Notes: generated by a model not told the origin, from the letters alone. A DNA stretch of 62,046 bases, filler included, from Nitrospinae bacterium RIFCSPLOWO2_12_FULL_45_22 (GCA_001803565.1; 5 parts of 5 records of this genome joined end to end with filler, not necessarily neighbours in it); one strand, 5' to 3'. Counted from the first letter of the whole stretch, positions 21,857 through 56,421 are shown. Translations and numbers: made by a program.

Positions 21857-22837
21857 ATGGTTGTTCAGACAAAAGAAAAAATCGATATTTCCATAATTAT
21901 TCCCGTATACAATGAAGAGAGGAATATCGCTCCTCTGTGCCATCTTATCACTGAACAGATGGATGGCATAGGGAGGGAATATGAGGTGTTATTTATTGAT
22001 GATGGAAGTAAAGACAGCACCTTTGAAGAGTTGGGCAAAATTGCTAAGGATAATAGACGGGTTAAGGTCATTTCCTTTAGGCGGAATTTTGGCCAGACGG
22101 CCGCTATGATGGCCGGTTTTGACCATGCCCGCGGAGAGATCATAGTAGCGTTAGACGGCGATCTTCAGAATGACCCTAAAGATATCCCTAAGATTCTGGA
22201 TAAGCTTGAAGAGGGGTATGATATTGTCAGTGGCTGGCGGAAAAGCAGGCAGGACAACTTTATCCTGCGGATAATCCCTTCTAAGATAGCCAATTGGCTA
22301 ATAGGATTAATCACTGGCGTAAGACTCCACGATTATGGTTGTTCGTTAAAGGCATATCGGGCTGAGGTAATAAAGAACATCCGGCTATATGGTGATATGC
22401 ATCGGTTTATTCCAGCTCTGGCCAGTATGGCCGGAGGCAAGATCGCCGAGATCGAAGTAAATCACCTTCCCCGCAAGTATGGTAATTCCAACTATGGGTT
22501 ATCACGCACATTAAAGGTGATCTTGGATCTAATTGCCGTAAAATTCCTCCTGGCTTTTTCCACCAAACCTATTCAGTTATTTGGGCTTTTAGGGTTATCT
22601 TCGGTCTTCGGAGGTTTTCTTTTTTTATCTTTAGCCATTTTTATGAAAATTTATCTCAATACAGATATGACCGGAAATCCCCTCCTGCTCTTATCAGTAC
22701 TTCTGGTCTTACTAGGGGTTCAATTCATTGGCACTGGTTTGCTGGCAGAAGTTACTGTCCGTACCTACCACGAATCGCAAAATAAACCTACCTATCTGAT
22801 AAAGCAAATCATTGATAACGGGAAAATGGTTGAGTAG
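21857..22837 (+). CDS. Glycosyltransferase family 2 (polyprenyl-phosphate sugar synthase, ArnC/DPM1-like)
   Basis: IIPVYNEE, DDGSKD, RNFGQTAA, LDGDLQNDP, HRFIP, two C-terminal TM helices. Confidence 0.92.
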   Translation: MVVQTKEKIDISIIIPVYNEERNIAPLCHLITEQMDGIGREYEVLFIDDGSKDSTFEELGKIAKDNRRVKVISFRRNFGQTAAMMAGFDHARGEIIVALDGDLQNDPKDIPKILDKLEEGYDIVSGWRKSRQDNFILRIIPSKIANWLIGLITGVRLHDYGCSLKAYRAEVIKNIRLYGDMHRFIPALASMAGGKIAEIEVNHLPRKYGNSNYGLSRTLKVILDLIAVKFLLAFSTKPIQLFGLLGLSSVFGGFLFLSLAIFMKIYLNTDMTGNPLLLLSVLLVLLGVQFIGTGLLAEVTVRTYHESQNKPTYLIKQIIDNGKMVE

Positions 22838-22940
22838 TTGAGTAGCTAAGTGGTTGAGTAGTTAACTGGTTGAGTGGGAGATTGGTTGAGTGGCTTCCTA
22901 CTTAACGACTCAACCAGTTTCCCACTCAACCATTTGACCA
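22827..22940. repeat. Inverted octamer-array hairpin (GGTTGAGT / ACTCAACC)
   Basis: Left arm 22827-22893 of TGGTTGAG-like units, right arm 22899-22940 of CTCAACCA-like units; supplies the stop codon of the GT2 gene. Confidence 0.85.
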
Positions 22941-22950
22941 GAGGTTAAAG

Positions 22951-23721
22951 ATGGATCCGATAATAATTTTATTAGGATTTTCTGTAGGAATTTTGGTTGG
23001 TCTTACTGGCATGGGAGGCGGTGCCCTTATGACGCCGCTCCTTATCCTGGTTATGGGGGTACGGCCGGTCATTGCAATCGGAACAGATTTGGCCTATGCG
23101 GCCTTAACCAAGGTATTTGGTGCCTGGCAGCACTATCGTCAGGGAAATGTTGATACTAAGATAGCTTTCCCTATGATGAGTGCTAGTATCCCTGCTAGCC
23201 TTTTGGGGGTTTACCTTATACACATATTAAAGTCCCGATACCAGGTTAATGTTGATGCGCTGATCAAGAGTTCTTTGGGACTGGTTTTGATTTTAGTGGC
23301 CTTAATCCTCTTTTCTTTGCCCCTGCTGTTCCAAAAAAGAGGTGATACTACACAACTTATCCACTTGTGGGGTCCCAAATCGATAAAGAGTTTAATTCTA
23401 GGTGCAGTAGTGGGATTTTTGGTAGGCTTTACCTCCATAGGAAGTGGCACCCTGATCTTTGCCGGGTTAGCCTTTTGCTCTGCCTTACCACTCAAGAAGA
23501 TAGTCAGTACCGATGTCTTTCATGGGGCGTTTCTTACTGCCGCCGCAGGTCTAGCTCATTGGTGGAGTGCCAATATTGACCTCGCACTGCTGTTTCCTCT
23601 GCTCATAGGTTCTATACCCGGGGTATTAATAGGTTCAAAGTTGAGTGTATCTTTGCCCAATTGGATTTTACGGCCCATCCTCGCCAGTATCCTCTTATGG
23701 GCGGGAATAAAGTTAATTTAG
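22951..23721 (+). CDS. TauE/SafE sulfite exporter family membrane protein
   Basis: GLTGMGGGALMTP, AIGTDL, VGFTSIGSG, GSIPGVLIGS. Confidence 0.9.
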   Translation: MDPIIILLGFSVGILVGLTGMGGGALMTPLLILVMGVRPVIAIGTDLAYAALTKVFGAWQHYRQGNVDTKIAFPMMSASIPASLLGVYLIHILKSRYQVNVDALIKSSLGLVLILVALILFSLPLLFQKRGDTTQLIHLWGPKSIKSLILGAVVGFLVGFTSIGSGTLIFAGLAFCSALPLKKIVSTDVFHGAFLTAAAGLAHWWSANIDLALLFPLLIGSIPGVLIGSKLSVSLPNWILRPILASILLWAGIKLI

Positions 23722-23735
23722 TGGAGGTGCCAAAT

Positions 23736-25841
23736 ATGCATGCTTTAAGGGATGTATGGGATATTTTTACTTCCAGCTCCTGGTGGTTAATCGGCAACCC
23801 TAAAGTAGAACAGGTTCGCTACTTTGAGATCCTGGACCATGCCCAGGGCATAGTAAAAGCCGCCCATGAGTTGGAAAGTATAGCAGTGGGTTATGCGCCG
23901 TTAGCGGAGCTACTATTCCCTGTAGGAGAGATATTTAAAGATAGCCCGGTGGGATTGGGTAGCCAGCGTATACCCTGGGACCCCAGTGGGCTTCATACCG
24001 GTGGGACTTCCCCGGTAATTCTGAAAGAAGCCGGGGTTATCTTTGGCTTAATCGGGCATAGAGAAGCCCGGGATGACCTTGGCGAAGGACCACATCTCAA
24101 TAAACAGATAGGAATAGCATTGGATTATGGCATTATCCCTATCTTATGCTGTGGAGAGCCAAAAGGTTCTCTGGTAGAGTCAGAGACCGCACGGGAAAAG
24201 GCTTTAGAAGCAGAATTACTACCAGCCCTCGAGGGGTTTACCGCCGAGGAGCTCCTCCAGGGACAGCTCACCATAGCTTATGAGCCGGGTCATGTTATTG
24301 GGTTGGACCAACCTGCAGATATGGGCTATATCAGGAGCGGATTCTCCTTGATAAACAAGATATTGAGCAAACATCATCTGGAGGGCTTAGCCAGCAAAGG
24401 GAGGCTCCTCTATGGTGGTGGGGTAAATTCCGATACTATCCAGCAGGTATGGGGCCTGGATAGGCCGACCAGGGTCTTCTCGGGCGAGAACTGGGCAGGC
24501 TTCCTGGTGGGTAGGGCCAGTGCCTCACCAGACTTTATGGATATGATGGAAAAATGGCAGACCAAATTACGAGGAAAGGCAAAGGAAAAGGTAGAGGAAG
24601 AGGTAAAGGTACTTCAACCTCAACCTCTGCCTATACCTCGGATAGTGGCCCCCAAAAAGAGGGTCAGAGTAGCCGTCTATGGTATAGGGGAAGTGGGAGT
24701 TGGGTTTATAACCTCGGTATTTAAAGAAGACAATATAGAGATTGTCCAGTTGTTTAATATGGAAGTGGATACCGAGGACATCCGGGCAAGGATTTATAAG
24801 AGCCTGTTTATTGATAAAGATAAGGTATTTATAGATGACCACCATGTGGTGATAAGGGATGAGGTAAATCTGGCCGGAGAGATAGAGCTCGATGGTGAAG
24901 CAATAGCACTACAGACCCTGTTGAACCCCATAGGAAATGATTATACCAGGGTAGTAAAGGTCTTACGAGACCAGAGGATGTTAGTCACCCCGGCCCATGA
25001 CCCCCGAGAAGCAGCCTCACAGATGGTAAAGGATATAGATATTGTCGTTTTTACCGTCGGGGGACTGCTTAAAGAGTGGCACTTGCTCAATCCATTCCTG
25101 GAAGCCGGTGCTAAGCACATCATTGTCAGCTCTACCAGCCCGGCCGCCGATATCTCTATTGTCCCCGGATATAACCACCACCTGTTTAATCCTGCCCTGC
25201 ATAAGACTATAGCCTTAGGCTCTTGTACCAGCAATTGTGGGATACCCATAGCCGCTATTGTGGAGGAGGCTTTAGGCAAAGGTTCTATCCTGGGTTCCCT
25301 GGTGGTTACTATGCATTCCAAGACTAACTCCCAACAGATTGGTGACAAAGGGGCAGACCCTAAAGAAGAGGGCCTGCTCAATAACTTAATCTTAACTACC
25401 ACGGGGATCAAAGATATATTGAACAAAGAAGGCTTTTTCCCCTCCATCGGTACTGCTATAGATGCCTTCTCTACCCGGGCCCCGGTAGAAAAGGCATCCC
25501 TATTGGTTATGCTCCTACAAGTCCAATGGGCCGATGGGCTGACGCGTGAGGGCTTGCGTGAGATATTCAAAAAGGCTGCGGCCAGCCCCCGATGGCAAGG
25601 GATAGTGAATTATGATGCCGACCATGATGGGTCCAAGATCTACCAGAAAAGCCCTGCCGCAGCGGATATCTTTGGCCGGTTGATTAATGTGTGGCCCAAT
25701 CCCTGTCTGACCGAGAAACATAATGGGAAAAAGAGTAGCTCAGGTATCTCTACCCTGATTATCCCGGCGGCCTATGCCAATGTCTATGGCTATGGCTGCC
25801 AGGCCAAACGCCTCATGCAATATATGGGACAATTCCTCTAA
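23736..25841 (+). CDS. Divergent triosephosphate isomerase - glyceraldehyde-3-phosphate dehydrogenase fusion protein
   Basis: TIM motifs IGNPK, LIGHREAR, PILCCGE, IAYEP, LLYGGGV, LVGRAS; GAPDH motifs VAVYGIGEVG, SCTSNC, TMHSKTNSQ, LTTTG, RAPV, YANVYGY; ATG 23736 follows SD GGAGG. Confidence 0.85.
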   Translation: MHALRDVWDIFTSSSWWLIGNPKVEQVRYFEILDHAQGIVKAAHELESIAVGYAPLAELLFPVGEIFKDSPVGLGSQRIPWDPSGLHTGGTSPVILKEAGVIFGLIGHREARDDLGEGPHLNKQIGIALDYGIIPILCCGEPKGSLVESETAREKALEAELLPALEGFTAEELLQGQLTIAYEPGHVIGLDQPADMGYIRSGFSLINKILSKHHLEGLASKGRLLYGGGVNSDTIQQVWGLDRPTRVFSGENWAGFLVGRASASPDFMDMMEKWQTKLRGKAKEKVEEEVKVLQPQPLPIPRIVAPKKRVRVAVYGIGEVGVGFITSVFKEDNIEIVQLFNMEVDTEDIRARIYKSLFIDKDKVFIDDHHVVIRDEVNLAGEIELDGEAIALQTLLNPIGNDYTRVVKVLRDQRMLVTPAHDPREAASQMVKDIDIVVFTVGGLLKEWHLLNPFLEAGAKHIIVSSTSPAADISIVPGYNHHLFNPALHKTIALGSCTSNCGIPIAAIVEEALGKGSILGSLVVTMHSKTNSQQIGDKGADPKEEGLLNNLILTTTGIKDILNKEGFFPSIGTAIDAFSTRAPVEKASLLVMLLQVQWADGLTREGLREIFKKAAASPRWQGIVNYDADHDGSKIYQKSPAAADIFGRLINVWPNPCLTEKHNGKKSSSGISTLIIPAAYANVYGYGCQAKRLMQYMGQFL

Positions 25842-26060: not shown

Positions 26061-26864
26061 ATGGATCATCTAGACGAGCTAGAAAGTAAGAGTATCTATA
26101 TTATCAGGGAGGCGTATTATCAATTCAGAGACATCGGGATGCTCTGGTCTATCGGCAAGGATTCGACTACACTATTGTGGCTCTGCCGCAAGGCCTTCCT
26201 CGACCAGATCCCTTTCCCGGTCATCCATATTGATACCGCCTACAAATTTCCGCAGATCTATGGCTTCAGGGACAGATATGCAAGAGAATGGGGGTTGGCT
26301 CTGAAAGTGGCGCGAAACGAAGAGGCCCTCATGCAAGGGGTGGGCCCAAATAGTAATGACAAATTAAAGTGCTGCACGGAGCTCAAGACCATTGCATTAA
26401 AGCAACTAATTGCCAGGGAGGGCTATAAGGCTATTTTGCTGGGGATCAGACGGGATGAGCATGGTATAAGGGCCAAAGAGAGATACTTTTCTCCCCGGGA
26501 TCAACAATTCACCTGGGACTACAAGAACCAGCCTGCGGAGCTTTGGGACCAGTATAAATCCGAAGCAGATGATGAAACCCATTTACGGGTACATCCCCTG
26601 CTGCATTGGACTGAAGTAGATATCTGGAGCTATATCAAGCGAGAAAATATCCCCTTTATAGACCTTTACCGGGCAGTGGACGGGAAGAGATACCGTAGCA
26701 TTGGGTGCGAAACCTGTTGTGATCCAATACCCTCAGAGGCCGATGATATTGATTCTATTCTGGACGAACTTATCAATACTAAAACACGGGAAAGAGCTGG
26801 CCGGGCGCAAGACAAAGAACAGGCTTATATGATGCAGAAGCTTCGGGCATTGGGTTATATGTAA
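26061..26864 (+). CDS. cysD: Sulfate adenylyltransferase subunit 2
   Basis: LESKSIYIIREA, WSIGKDS, RAKERYFS, RVHPLLHWTE, YRSIGC; upstream of cysN. Confidence 0.93.
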   Translation: MDHLDELESKSIYIIREAYYQFRDIGMLWSIGKDSTTLLWLCRKAFLDQIPFPVIHIDTAYKFPQIYGFRDRYAREWGLALKVARNEEALMQGVGPNSNDKLKCCTELKTIALKQLIAREGYKAILLGIRRDEHGIRAKERYFSPRDQQFTWDYKNQPAELWDQYKSEADDETHLRVHPLLHWTEVDIWSYIKRENIPFIDLYRAVDGKRYRSIGCETCCDPIPSEADDIDSILDELINTKTRERAGRAQDKEQAYMMQKLRALGYM

Positions 26865-26866
26865 GG

Positions 26867-26899
26867 ACGTTCAGGGTTCAACGTTCAACGTTCTGCGTT
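26867..26899 (+). repeat. Left heptamer arm (ACGTTCA)n of four-helix-bundle element
   Basis: ACGTTCA GGGTTCA ACGTTCA ACGTTCT GCGTT immediately before ATG 26900. Confidence 0.85.
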
Positions 26900-27280
26900 A
26901 TGAAGATAGAAAGATTTGAGGATATAGAGGCATGGCAAGCAGCACGGAAACTGGTCCAGGAGGTCTATCGAATTACAAAAGGGATAGATTTTTCAAAAGA
27001 CTATGGGTTAAAGGATCAGATACAGAGGGCGGCTGTATCTGCTATGGCCAATATAGCAGAAGGGTTTGATGATCGATCAAATCAAGCATTCATCCAGTTT
27101 CTCAATTATGCTCTTCGATCTGTAACAGAAGTCCAGTCCCATTTATATGTAGCATTGGATCAGGAATATATAACCCAGAGTAACTTTGACGAACTTTATC
27201 AGCAGGCCAATCGAATAAAAAGTATAATAAACGGGTTTATCAGATACCTAAAAACATCAAAATTTGGCTATAAAACTTAG
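26900..27280 (+). CDS. Four helix bundle protein (23S rRNA-IVP / Avd-like family)
   Basis: FEDIEAWQ, DYGLKDQIQRAAVSAMANIAEGF, QFLNYALRSVTEVQSHLYVALDQEYI. Confidence 0.92.
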   Translation: MKIERFEDIEAWQAARKLVQEVYRITKGIDFSKDYGLKDQIQRAAVSAMANIAEGFDDRSNQAFIQFLNYALRSVTEVQSHLYVALDQEYITQSNFDELYQQANRIKSIINGFIRYLKTSKFGYKT

Positions 27281-27329
27281 AACGTAGCACGTCGAACGTA
27301 GAACCAAGAACGTAGCACGTCGCACGAAC
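27279..27329 (+). repeat. Right heptamer arm (AGAACGT)n of four-helix-bundle element
   Basis: Seven units AGAACGT AGCACGT CGAACGT AGAACCA AGAACGT AGCACGT CGCACGA; reverse complement of the left-arm unit. Confidence 0.88.
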
Positions 27330-27342
27330 AAAAGGAGGCAAA

Positions 27343-28743
27343 ATGGAGGATAAAAAATTAAAGTTGGTTATTGTGGGTCATGTGGACCATGGAAAATCAA
27401 CCCTTATAGGTAGATTGCTCTATGATAGCGGTTCTTTACCTCAGGGCCTTATGGAAGAGATTGAGCAGAGTCTGGTCCAATTGGGCAAACCAGTAGAATT
27501 TGCATATATAATGGATCACTTAGAAGAAGAGAGGATAGAAGAGAAGACTATTGATACGGCCCAGTCTTTCTTCAAAACGGATAATCGGAATTATGTGATT
27601 ATCGATACCCCGGGCCATAAGGAATTCATCAAGAATATGCTTACTGGAGCTTCGCAGGCCGACGCCGCAATCCTTATCGTCTCGGCAATAGAAGGCATAG
27701 AAGAGCAGACCAGGCGGCATGCTTATATTTTGGGTATGTTGGGATTGAAACAGGTCATTTTGGCCATTAATAAAATGGATTTAATAAATTATAGCCAGAC
27801 GCGATTCCAGGAGTTAAAAAATGAGGCTTTGTTATTTCTCGATTCTATGAAAATAAAGCCTCAACGTATCATCCCCATTTCTGCTAAGCAAGGAGATAAT
27901 ATTGGCTCTGTTTCAGGTAATATGAGTTGGTACCAGGGGCCATTTATCCTGGAGGCATTAGACCAGTTTAATATCAGGGAGTCCCTGAATGATAAGCCCT
28001 TTCGGTTTCCTATCCAGGACGTTTATTATGACGTTCTACGTTCAACGTGCGACGTTCCCGCAGAACGAAGAACCTCGAACGTAGAACCTATCCTGGTAGG
28101 AAGGGTGTCATCAGGTAAAATAAGGGTAGGTGATGAAGTAATAATATTTCCTACCAAGACCAGGACCAGAGTGAAATCTATCGAGATATTTCATAAAGAG
28201 AAAGATATAAAGTTAGAGGCCGAGGCAGGAGAGAGCATCGGGTTAACTTTGGAAGACGACCTAGAGGTAAGAAGGGGGCAGGTCATTTGTGCCTATTCCC
28301 CAACAGCCACAGCTCAATACCCATGGTTAACCACCAGGATAAACACAAATATCTTTTGGATCTCTCCCATCCCTTTAAATATTGATGCTCAATCGAGTAT
28401 TTCCTCACCCAACCACCCAACCACCCAACCGCCCAACCGCTCAACCACTCAACCACTCAACCACTCCCCCATCACCATTCGCTGCGCTACGACTGAAGAG
28501 ATTTGCTCGATAGATAAGATTGAGACAAAGTTTGATTCTTCTACCTTAGAGATCATAGAGGAAGATGGGAAGGTATTGGGAGAGACAGAGGTGGGAAAAG
28601 TTGTTATTTCTATTGAAAAACCCATGGTATTTGAGGACTTTAATGAGATTGAAGAACTTGGACGCTTTGTCCTGGTAAAGGAAGGACAGATCTGTGCCGG
28701 GGGCATCATTACAGATATAGATAGAGGTATAGGTGGAGGATAA
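27343..28743 (+). CDS. cysN: Sulfate adenylyltransferase subunit 1 (GTPase) with two repeat-derived in-frame insertions; no fused APS kinase
   Basis: [32 protein letters not shown]...AGGII; follows cysD. Confidence 0.9.
28031..28089. repeat. 4+4 heptamer inverted array inserted in frame in cysN
   Basis: ACGTTCT ACGTTCA ACGTGCG ACGTTCC cgc AGAACGA AGAACCT CGAACGT AGAACCT. Confidence 0.88.
28406..28466 (+). repeat. Octamer tandem array (CACYCAAC, about 7.6 copies) in frame in cysN
   Basis: CACCCAAC x3, CGCCCAAC, CGCTCAAC, CACTCAAC x2, CACTC; encodes the low-complexity stretch [20 protein letters not shown]. Confidence 0.9.
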
Positions 28744-29047
28744 GGTGTTTAAGACATTTAAAGATATGCCCATATGGCAAGAGGCAATGGCAGTGGCTGA
28801 GAATATTTTTAAACTTACAGAAAATTTACCTACGAAAGAAGATTATGGGTTTACCTCGCAAATCCGGAGGGCAGCCTTAAGCATTTCTGCCAATATAGCG
28901 GAGGCCTATGGCCGCAATCATACATTGGATAAGATCAATTTCTATTACTTTGGCCGGGGATCAATTACGGAGACCCAAAGCCAGCTTGAATACGGCCGCA
29001 GAGCTCGATACCTTATAACTTCTTTTAAAAGTAAAATTGAGAAATAG
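28733..29047 (+). CDS. Four helix bundle protein, short (last helix apparently deleted)
   Basis: [44 protein letters not shown]; flanked by complementary hexamer arrays (28713-28739 AGRTAK-like; 29054-29076 ACCTCT-like). Confidence 0.85.
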
Positions 29048-29095
29048 CCAATTCCCTCTCCCTTTACCTCTACCTCATATCAAAGGAGACATGCC

Positions 29096-29804: not shown

Positions 29805-29904
29805 NNNNNNNNNNNNNNNNNNNNNNNNNNNNNNNNNNNNNNNNNNNNTTAATTAATTAANNNNNNNNNNNNNNNNNNNNNNNNNNNNNNNNNNNNNNNN
29901 NNNN
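29805..29904. other. Artificial contig linker
   Basis: N44-TTAATTAATTAA-N44 (stops in all six frames), identical at four places. Confidence 0.98.
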
Positions 29905-37009: not shown

Positions 37010-37109
37010 NNNNNNNNNNNNNNNNNNNNNNNNNNNNNNNNNNNNNNNNNNNNTTAATTAATTAANNNNNNNNNNNNNNNNNNNNNNNNNNNNNNNNNNN
37101 NNNNNNNNN
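37010..37109. other. Artificial contig linker
   Basis: N44-TTAATTAATTAA-N44. Confidence 0.98.
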
Positions 37110-40850: not shown

Positions 40851-40997
40851 AGGTAATTAGGTCATTGGGTCATTAGGTTACCTAATAACACGAAAACACG
40901 AAAGGTACGAAAGCCACGTTTTAGCTTCGTGCAATTCGTGTTCTTTCGTGTTGCCTAATAACCCAATAACCCAGTGACCTAATGACCCAAATTGCCT
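40851..40997. repeat. Nested inverted arrays: outer octamer (GGTCATTR/YAATGACC), inner (CACGAAA/TTTCGTG)
   Basis: Inner element 40887-40952 sits between CCTAAT direct repeats within the outer hairpin. Confidence 0.82.
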
Positions 40998-44514: not shown

Positions 44515-44614
44515 NNNNNNNNNNNNNNNNNNNNNNNNNNNNNNNNNNNNNNNNNNNNTTAATTAATTAANNNNNNNNNNNNNNNNNNNNNNNNNNNNNN
44601 NNNNNNNNNNNNNN
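44515..44614. other. Artificial contig linker
   Basis: N44-TTAATTAATTAA-N44. Confidence 0.98.
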
Positions 44615-55363: not shown

Positions 55364-55476
55364 CAAAGCCCATTTGCGCAATGGGTGCTCACAAAACAAT
55401 TAACAAAGAGCAAAGAAGAAAACATTAAACCCGCTAGTTTTGTGGTTCTTAGCTCTTTGCTCTTAACTCTTAGCTT

Positions 55477-56190
55477 ATGGTAGCTATACAATTTGATGTT
55501 AAAGGATTCCTGGAGACATCGTTTCTCGAATGGCCGGGGCGGATAAGTTCGGTAATATTTTTGGCGGGGTGCAATTTTCGCTGCCCTTATTGTCATAACC
55601 ACCCCTTAGTCTTAGCACCGGCACGGCTCCCTACTATCCCATTAGAATCCATTCTTTCTTTTCTGGGGGGGCATAAAGACTGGATTGATGGGGTGGTGAT
55701 AACCGGTGGTGAACCTACCCTCTATGCAGCCCTACCATCTTTGGTTCAACAATTTAAGGAGCGAGGTTTCAGGGTAAAATTGGATACGAATGGTAGTAAT
55801 CCTATCTTGCTAAAAGAACTCCTGGATAATCACCTGCTAGATTATGTGGCGATGGATATCAAAGCCCCTCTGGAAGAGAACAAATATACTCTGGTGGCCG
55901 GGGTAGAAGTTGACCTTAGCAGAATCAATCAGAGTATCCAACTCCTACTGGATGCTGATATCCCCTACGAATTTCGTACTACAGTGCTCCCCTTATTCGT
56001 TACCCGAGAGGATGTCCTGGCTATCGCCCGGGTCATAAAAGGGGGGAAGAGGTATGTCTTACAGAATTTTAACCCCCAAAACCCCCTAGACCCTCGCTTA
56101 AAAGAAGAAGCCCCTTACCAGCCTGCCGAGTTGGAAGAAATAGCCCAACAACTAATGGATTATATCTCTCATATCCAGACTATCTATTGA
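55477..56190 (+). CDS. nrdG: Anaerobic ribonucleoside-triphosphate reductase activating protein (radical SAM)
   Basis: GCNFRCPYCHN, ITGGEPT, VKLDTNG, AMDIKAP, YEFRTT. Confidence 0.88.
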   Translation: MVAIQFDVKGFLETSFLEWPGRISSVIFLAGCNFRCPYCHNHPLVLAPARLPTIPLESILSFLGGHKDWIDGVVITGGEPTLYAALPSLVQQFKERGFRVKLDTNGSNPILLKELLDNHLLDYVAMDIKAPLEENKYTLVAGVEVDLSRINQSIQLLLDADIPYEFRTTVLPLFVTREDVLAIARVIKGGKRYVLQNFNPQNPLDPRLKEEAPYQPAELEEIAQQLMDYISHIQTIY

Positions 56191-56321: not shown

Positions 56322-56421
56322 NNNNNNNNNNNNNNNNNNNNNNNNNNNNNNNNNNNNNNNNNNNNTTAATTAATTAANNNNNNNNNNNNNNNNNNNNNNN
56401 NNNNNNNNNNNNNNNNNNNNN
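56322..56421. other. Artificial contig linker
   Basis: N44-TTAATTAATTAA-N44. Confidence 0.98.

Follow-up and report, generated by a model that had tools for sequence, protein, structure and literature searches.

Between cysD and cysN, the genes for the small and large subunits of sulfate adenylyltransferase, the DNA analysed here carries a small gene of the PF05635 family (23S rRNA intervening-sequence proteins) enclosed by two opposed arrays of 7-nt repeats with the core GAAC/GTTC. This DNA (hereafter the window) is 62,046 nt long and derives from Nitrospinae bacterium RIFCSPLOWO2_12_FULL_45_22 (GCA_001803565.1); the gene and its arrays (hereafter the cassette, 26867-27326) are located on the first contig of the window (1-29804), in a one-directional cluster of polysaccharide and sulfate-activation genes. 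The repeat-enclosed gene is confirmed as a real feature of this DNA. With a probability of roughly 0.55, we read it as an intervening-sequence (IVS)-type cassette placed outside rRNA, in an mRNA, the arms of which would form a register-tolerant stem and the repeat core of which would be read by the encoded protein. The IVS-type cassette is a kind already known, and its place in an mRNA operon is a new variant. The cassette and its host genes are as follows:

26061..26864, + strand: cysD, sulfate adenylyltransferase small subunit, upstream host gene (PF01507, E 1.2e-39)

26867..26899, no strand: left arm, ACGTTCA array of about 4.7 units that abuts the ATG (Tandem Repeats Finder; inverted repeat)

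26900..27280, + strand: four-helix-bundle gene, PF05635, 126 aa (Pfam E 6e-36)

27274..27326, no strand: right arm, reverse-complement unit AGAACGT / AACGTAG, about 7 units, containing the TAG stop (Tandem Repeats Finder; inverted repeat; RNA fold)

27343..28743, + strand: cysN, large subunit, GTPase, downstream host gene (PF00009 and other domains; eight orthologues aligned)

An earlier note on this DNA had described an ACGTTCA array to the left of the gene and an array of the reverse-complement unit to its right, and Tandem Repeats Finder recovered both. The left array was reported at 26867-26893 (period 7, 3.9 copies, 80% matches, unit ACGTTCA) and amounts to 4.7 copies when followed up to 26899; the right array was reported at 27274-27320 (6.7 copies, 75% matches) and also at 27278-27326 (7.0 copies, 76%). 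Both are degenerate, with a constant core of 4-5 nt and about three variable positions. The best pairing of the arms joins 26867-26899 with 27281-27313 over 33 nt that are 82% complementary and 381 nt apart. In the predicted RNA fold the arms pair in both the minimum free energy and the centroid structures, with the open reading frame (ORF) as the loop anticipated in that note (-119.9 kcal/mol, z = -3.18, 0/100 shuffles as stable). The flank score of the cassette (ungapped, +1/-2) was 15, a value reached by none of 2000 shuffles of the upstream flank and ranking first among the 55 ORFs of the window with 100 aa or more, the runner-up of which scores 9. The left arm abuts the ATG (26899/26900), where it takes the place of a Shine-Dalgarno sequence, as had been claimed: no purine-rich Shine-Dalgarno is found there. 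The TAG stop (27278-27280) falls within the right array, and cysN has a Shine-Dalgarno of its own (AGGAGG at 27333-27338).

It could be argued that the arms arose during assembly or match by chance, given that the window strings together metagenome contigs with N44-TTAATTAATTAA-N44 linkers between them; it thus represents several molecules, and distances across the linkers are meaningless. However, a contig of 1011 nt from a second sample (run X2) runs from cysD through the cassette into cysN (26706-27716) with zero differences, no shuffle reached the observed score, and 43 of 79 homologues show the pattern as well, so that an artefactual or chance origin is very improbable.

The cassette protein matches PF05635 over the complete profile (positions 1-106 of 106) with 123.3 bits (cut-off 33.8) and an E-value of 6e-36. 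This is its only Pfam match, so no IS200/IS605-like tyrosine transposase of the kind found in RAYT proteins (transposases associated with repetitive extragenic palindromes, REP) was identified in it, and the Pfam scan revealed no transposase domain either in the cassette or on contig 1-29804. The AlphaFold2 model (pLDDT 91, pTM 0.84) consists of four long helices. Foldseek matched it to 2gsc, with TM-scores of 0.84 and 0.92 (normalised by model and by chain, respectively), and to 2rld (0.77 and 0.89), and both entries, which are members of the family outside diversity-generating retroelements (DGRs), were also its matches by sequence. Each of these two structures was deposited with five chains, and a homopentameric toroid was described by Lin et al. 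2006, as cited in PMC4990558. Some database homologues carry C-terminal tails such as ERRT or NVELRT (P0005, P0019, P0034, P0082, P0117), which look like read-through into a downstream GAAC-type array; to that extent, annotated protein ends in the PF05635 family are unreliable.

The fold shared with the DGR accessory protein Avd, which the earlier note had proposed, was borne out by Foldseek (4dwl_D, TM-score 0.73 normalised by model and 0.85 by chain, rmsd 1.8 A), and the search also returned the DGR ribonucleoprotein (8ub7 and related entries). Like the cassette protein, Avd is a four-helix bundle, and it acts on nucleic acid within an RNA-protein complex (8ub7). On this ground the gene might be taken for an Avd gene of a DGR, with the repeats unrelated to it. 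Nevertheless, the two proteins are only 12% identical, the sequence matches go to the non-DGR members 2gsc and 2rld, and neither template nor variable repeats were found on the contig. No reverse transcriptase was found among the 24 Pfam-scanned proteins of the 29.8-kb contig, a set in which ORFs below 150 aa are represented by the two PF05635 genes alone. The DGR reading was rejected for lack of a reverse transcriptase among these proteins, and we regard it as extremely unlikely. To our knowledge, Avd genes have not been described with heptamer arrays. An rRNA context (23S helix 25 or 45) was likewise discarded: the neighbours are cysD and cysN, and Rfam families gave zero matches across the whole window.

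The resemblance of the cassette to rRNA intervening sequences proved closer than the earlier note had claimed. The ends of the 23S rRNA IVS of Coxiella burnetii pair into a stem of 28 bp (Warrier et al. 2016, PMC4990558), and two or three GACAGAT heptamers, variable in number between strains, are located just before the ATG of its S23p gene. These heptamers lie within the stem, and RNase III cuts it at the first of them (PMC4990558). The statement in that note that no mechanism was described for such an element has therefore to be withdrawn for the rRNA form, for which PMC4990558 describes excision by RNase III. The cassette has in common with the Coxiella IVS, as described there, a stem of terminal inverted repeats around a PF05635 ORF and copy-variable tandem heptamers directly before the start codon; a poor or absent Shine-Dalgarno is a further shared trait, as inclusion in the host transcript probably is. 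The IVS of Leptospira is of this kind as cited in PMC4990558. Unlike the Coxiella IVS, the cassette resides in the protein-coding cysD-cysN operon and not in helix 25 or 45 of 23S rRNA, its unit is ACGTTCA and not GACAGAT, and both of its arms are arrays. RNase III cutting, shown for the Coxiella element (PMC4990558), would apply to the cassette by analogy.

If this reading is correct, the cassette would have no promoter of its own and would be transcribed with the operon. Genes next to PF05635 genes are co-directional in 63/67 cases upstream and 56/66 downstream, from which we infer co-transcription. In the transcript, the arrays would form a stem of about 30 bp, several registers of pairing being possible, and its base would carry the start and stop codons. 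RNase III would then cut this stem, as in the Coxiella rRNA IVS, and the cut would free a small mRNA and leave cysD and cysN on separate messages. The 4-nt core would most simply be read by the encoded protein, which would probably act as a pentamer.

Across many phyla, the combination of gene and arrays characterises the PF05635 family as a whole. Relatives of the cassette protein at 60-75% identity number in the thousands and are spread across phyla. In 80 genome loci from at least 12 phyla, we compared the 70 nt before each PF05635 gene with the 90 nt after it, taking a score of at least 12 as matched flanks and ORFs in the same loci as controls. Matched flanks were found in 43/79 PF05635 genes (26 inverted, 18 direct) vs 3/386 control ORFs (Fisher p 4e-35; loci were counted as independent although some are orthologous, so that p-values are overstated). 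Tandem periodicity of at least 12 in a flank was detected in 44/79 PF05635 genes vs 32/386 control ORFs, and the dominant period next to the PF05635 genes is 7. Inverted flanks predominated over direct ones by 23 vs 7 where the downstream array was in sense orientation (p 0.005). These data agree with the membership in a repeat-bounded family that the earlier note had put forward, and ORF-less hairpins of the same kind are present in the window and elsewhere. Its further expectations held in part. Inverted arrays occur in 26/79 homologues, but 18/79 have direct ones, and flank arrays are richer at PF05635 genes than at control ORFs, but similar repeats are also common away from these genes. 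Thus, 145 of 316 arrays of period 6-9 were located within 120 nt of a PF05635 ORF, that is, in about 12% of the sequence, and the other 171 were farther off, so the repeats are both a genome feature and locally concentrated on PF05635 genes.

Comparison of cysD loci shows that the cassette is an insertion at the cysD-cysN junction. We examined 84 such loci, 80 from a CysD metagenome scan that included the contig of the window and four from genomes; the CysD orthologues of 79 metagenome loci were 57-73% identical. In 68 of the 84 loci cysN follows cysD, and besides the contig of the window none of the other 67 junctions holds a PF05635 gene in the spacer, in line with the inserted unit that the earlier note had postulated. 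Spacers were shorter than 100 nt in 39 of these 67 junctions. A cysD search in 301 genomes of the order to which G001 belongs gave two matches. One spacer (L127:4301-4447) contains an ORF-less heptamer hairpin (ATTCTAA / TTAGAAT), and other large spacers (L089-L158), inspected by eye, contain ORFs for small membrane proteins, a histidine-triad-like ORF and longer ORFs of about 280 aa (membrane) or about 300 aa.

In natural populations, array length changes by whole units in both directions. In the organism of the window, arrays differ between samples by 7 nt fewer at 26876, 8 nt more at 28423 and 8 nt fewer at 28440; the first of these differences, in a contig of run X9, corresponds to the loss of one whole unit of the left arm. 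Among contigs from four DNA runs, none had a junction lacking the cassette.

The junction between aroE and pilD was classed by eye in 30 genomes of one verrucomicrobial family, with four junctions checked by alignment, and fell into the following states:

cassette present: 10/30 genomes

cleanly empty, with both genes adjacent: 11/30 genomes

ORF-less cassette derivative: 2/30 genomes

other palindromic element: 7/30 genomes

On the AroE tree the cassette is scattered, with nine parsimony changes, at least four of them forced by well-supported branches, and its presence is no more clustered than that of shuffled labels. Array sequence has overwritten the C-terminal end of AroE and the N-terminal end of PilD, just as it has the end of CysN in the window. 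Where the ORF has been deleted, an ORF-less hairpin remains: in L203 about 450 nt of the ORF are gone, with both arrays and the last ~13 codons kept, and in L208 only the stop-codon context is left between the arrays. Such ORF-less derivatives are a feature reminiscent of miniature inverted-repeat transposable elements. The cassette has most likely spread by recombination between arrays of the same unit; transposases are absent from the scanned proteins of its contig. By this comparison the aroE-pilD junction is an insertion hot spot for palindromic elements, of which at least four different ones have been acquired there among related genomes. Palindromes other than heptamer arrays (the CCCTCACCCCGGCCCTCTCCC type and another) occur at this junction in L212, L216, L219 and L206. 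In addition, AACTGGT, a sequence native in pilD, is similar to the unit GGACTGG (L201 vs L199). Together with GACGTTT in cysN (see below), this suggests that insertions might be seeded or integrated by microhomology, the two cases being the only ones observed.

These observations bear on a different explanation, in which the heptamer hairpins are genome-wide palindromic microsatellites, self-propagating or born by slippage as in short tandemly repeated repetitive (STRR) or REP sequences, and are unrelated to any role of the protein, the small gene being a selfish passenger that lands or survives in hairpin loops. The 171 of 316 arrays away from PF05635 genes would be accounted for in this way, as would the frequency of ORF-less hairpins, the hairpin found within the loop of another one at 40851-40990 of the window, the uptake of at least four palindromic elements at aroE-pilD and the unit-like native sequences at two insertion edges. 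However, the two ORF-less hairpins inspected in detail (L203 and L208) retain the last codons or the stop context, which indicates that they derive from a full cassette and not the reverse. Heptamer arrays were also about 18-fold fewer where the family is missing (233 period-7 arrays in 437 kb of PF05635-bearing loci vs 13 in 432 kb of cysD loci without PF05635). Furthermore, from phylum to phylum the unit keeps the core that goes with its protein subfamily, which random landing would not lead one to expect, and paralogs within a genome are old and divergent (hidden Markov model E-values from 1e-53 to 1e-4) and not recent hops. Altogether, we consider the microsatellite explanation improbable.

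The unit differs between paralogs and tracks the protein subfamily. In total, 79 + 23 homologues and paralogs were examined, the paralogs having been collected in five other genomes. Of 116 heptamer arrays beside genes of the PF05635 subfamily found in the window, 46% contain GAAC and 30% GGAC, for a chance estimate of about 5%, and in the downstream arrays the coding strand reads GRAC at 41 loci and GTYC at 4. GRAC occurs at least three times downstream of 41/79 members of this subfamily, which come from many phyla, vs 2/17 divergent paralogs in the same genomes (p 0.003). Paralogs within one genome carry distinct units, such as GAATACA, CAATCAA, TGATCAA, GTTGAAT and GGAAGNC. A core that stays constant from phylum to phylum, next to positions that drift, speaks for a sequence-specific reader rather than mere pairing, and suggests that the encoded protein recognises this core. 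Readings of the GAAC/GGAC core as a T-loop, an m6A motif or a restriction site were dropped, no test having come out in their favour.

Arrays built from the unit of a paralog recur at scattered sites in its genome. In genome G306, the units of three paralogs form arrays at 6 to ~14 further loci, with 0 matches for reversed-pattern controls. More generally, gene-distant arrays matched the flank unit of a PF05635 paralog of the same genome in 13/32 comparisons vs 16/128 with other genomes. The median array near PF05635 genes has 4.6 units and 34 nt.

It is on these results that a second explanation, the main rival, is founded, according to which the arrays serve primarily for binding and the stem is a by-product. 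Each PF05635 paralog, probably as a pentamer, would read about five tandem heptamers on RNA or DNA; the gene, being within its own sites, could be autoregulated, and the scattered arrays of the same unit would be its regulon. A PF05635 protein would then be the "unidentified global regulator" of Geobacter metallireducens (PMC2700814), a species in which paired sites of four or five units lie between operon genes. A unit that follows the protein subfamily and not the host, the dispersal of paralog units in G306, and the excess of matches with paralogs of the same genome are what would be expected, and the median of 4.6 units corresponds well with the five chains of 2gsc and 2rld and with the toroid of Lin et al. 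2006 (via PMC4990558). Direct and one-sided configurations occur, register-specific covariation does not, and Avd, the nearest characterised fold, is found in an RNA-protein complex (8ub7 and related entries). On the other hand, simple operator arrays would not predict the excess of inverted over direct flanks (23 vs 7), the proteins are near neutral in charge, and the main text on Geobacter (PMC2700814), considered apart from its supplementary tables, does not mention the family. We therefore see this explanation as a possible but rather unlikely one. A more general proposal, that PF05635 proteins are sequence-specific readers of tandem heptamer arrays in which a five-subunit ring would engage about five cognate units, with the gene placed among its own sites and the arrays scattered over operon spacers and even coding regions as targets, is tentative and stands clearly behind the IVS-type reading.

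Several observations weigh against the IVS-type cassette as we read it. Direct arrays in 18/79 homologues and an array restricted to the downstream side in 11 loci imply that the stem is not the whole story. When the order of units was permuted in one arm, mean complementarity was 16.7 for the observed order vs 17.2 for permuted ones, with p <= 0.05 in 0/19 loci; complementarity is thus unaffected by permutation, and there is no pair-by-pair covariation in the stem. The 171 arrays far from PF05635 genes are located between ordinary genes or form ORF-less hairpins. PF05635 proteins have a median pI of 7.9 and a net charge of +1, which is atypical of a strong nucleic-acid binder. According to its authors, the S23p protein of Coxiella is probably not made (PMC4990558), and the cassette copy is without a Shine-Dalgarno. 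No empty allele of the window's own locus was found, and the nearest CysD relatives are at most 73% identical. Finally, the possible arms of a second PF05635 gene in the window are not significant by themselves (score 8, equalled by 197/2000 shuffles). With evidence against a pure stem as well as against a pure binding-site model, both functions are kept in the best explanation, that of an IVS-type cassette with a register-tolerant stem and a core read by its own protein.

In REP/REPIN-RAYT systems, a gene lies between inverted cognate short repeats, the same repeats are scattered intergenically and the repeat families are paralog-specific. The cassette resembles them, as an analogy of layout only, in having a gene within its own repeats, scattered copies and paralog-specific families; unlike them, it encodes a 126-aa helical bundle without a transposase domain and has tandem heptamer arrays instead of single palindromes. 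Cyanobacterial STRR sequences are short tandemly repeated heptamer arrays. The arrays studied here are of this type, being tandem 7-nt units that are dispersed and mostly intergenic. In Geobacter metallireducens, paired opposite-strand sites between operon genes, each with four or five octamers or heptamers in tandem, were ascribed to unidentified global regulators (Aklujkar et al. 2009, PMC2700814), and TAACTGA repeats were described in Beggiatoaceae, cyanobacteria and Bacteroidetes (MacGregor 2015, PMC4679880). As far as these accounts go, such arrays share with those of the cassette four to six copy-variable units of 7-8 nt between and sometimes within genes, often as opposite-strand pairs and sometimes ending just before a start codon. 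The difference is that PMC2700814 and PMC4679880 draw no link to PF05635: the terms S23, four-helix and intervening sequence have 0 occurrences in their main texts, supplementary tables being outside this count. A published general link between PF05635 and heptamers was not found in a search that left aside subscription journals and supplementary files, and the wider link appears to be undescribed.

Few small protein families without an explained function are as common in environmental bacteria as PF05635. A gene that is habitually within its own arrays, a unit that tracks the subfamily and units scattered genome-wide join two questions: the function of the IVS protein family, raised since the 1990s, and the heptamer repeats of cyanobacteria, large sulfur bacteria, Geobacter and others. 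Both can now be tested at the bench. IVS-type cassettes are not limited to rRNA but extend to ordinary operons, overwritten ends of neighbouring genes and in-frame insertions into coding sequences, and through their place in operons they would shape operon expression and protein termini. If the tentative array-reader proposal were true, classical rRNA intervening sequences would be the ribosomal special case of an array-reader system, which would also explain STRR/TAACTGA-type repeats and the sites of the "unidentified global regulators" in several phyla.

Other repeats, a second PF05635 gene and the contig joints of the window are listed below:

22829-22935: ORF-less hairpin, GGTTGAGT / ACTCAACC units of 7-8 nt, between the GT2 and TauE genes

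28033..28087, no strand: ORF-less hairpin of the cassette's heptamer family within the cysN coding sequence, in frame (arms 25 nt, 80% complementary, 5-nt loop)

28406-28464: CACCCAAC octamer array, 7.4 copies, within the cysN coding sequence, adding 18 residues that are absent in 8/8 aligned orthologues

28719..28739, no strand: possible left arm of the second gene, AGATAGAGGTATAGGTGGAGG, weak evidence (pairs with 29055-29075, 21 nt, 81%)

28733..29047, + strand: second PF05635 gene, 104 aa, overlapping the end of cysN (Pfam E 2.1e-29, 102.3 bits, profile 1-86 of 106; phmmer)

29055..29075, no strand: possible right arm of the second gene, CCTCTA-type array, weak evidence (Tandem Repeats Finder 29055-29076, period 6, 3.7 copies)

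29805-29904, 37010-37109, 44515-44614 and 56322-56421: N44-TTAATTAATTAA-N44 linkers, contig joints

38373-38440: ORF-less hairpin, CCAGGGG / CCCTGAT units around a small GC stem

40851-40990: nested ORF-less hairpins, a CACGAAA-type inner pair within the loop of a GGTCATT-type outer pair

The hairpin at 28033-28087 is 750 nt downstream of the cassette and encodes about 19 extra residues of CysN; the insert is absent in 7/8 aligned orthologues, and the eighth has another insert at the same site. GACGTTT (28017-28023), within the conserved QDVY codons of cysN, precedes the first GACGTTC unit of this hairpin by 5 nt. In the CACCCAAC array, the additional 8 nt at 28423 were found in run X2 and the missing 8 nt at 28440 in run X9, and both changes would shift the cysN frame according to our own reading of the frames; such length changes may represent an on/off switch or a decaying cysN. 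The second PF05635 gene is 31% identical to the first, these two being the only PF05635 copies in the 62 kb, and its possible left arm AGATAGAGGTATAGGTGGAGG also codes for the private C-terminal tail of CysN. The nested pair at 40851-40990 suggests that hairpin loops are insertion sites themselves. A direct array of the TCTTAGC type (4.1 copies, 55447-55478) stops two bases short of an ATG, a position akin to that of the left arm of the cassette and of the TAACTGA repeats as described in PMC4679880.

All 24 scanned proteins of contig 1-29804 share one direction. The genes of this contig include functions of polysaccharide export and biosynthesis (Poly_export, Wzz/GNVR kinase, GT4 and GT2 glycosyltransferases, epimerase, asparagine synthase and deacetylase), and the cluster ends with TauE, a fusion related to triosephosphate isomerase (TIM) and glyceraldehyde-3-phosphate dehydrogenase (GAPDH), CysD, CysN and a phosphodiesterase. 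In the ORF of 726 aa that encodes this fusion (23661-25841), a TIM domain is joined to a GAPDH C-terminal domain, and an (AAAGGT)x6 array is located between the two domains at 24575-24611; this tandem array may have been the cause of the gene fusion.

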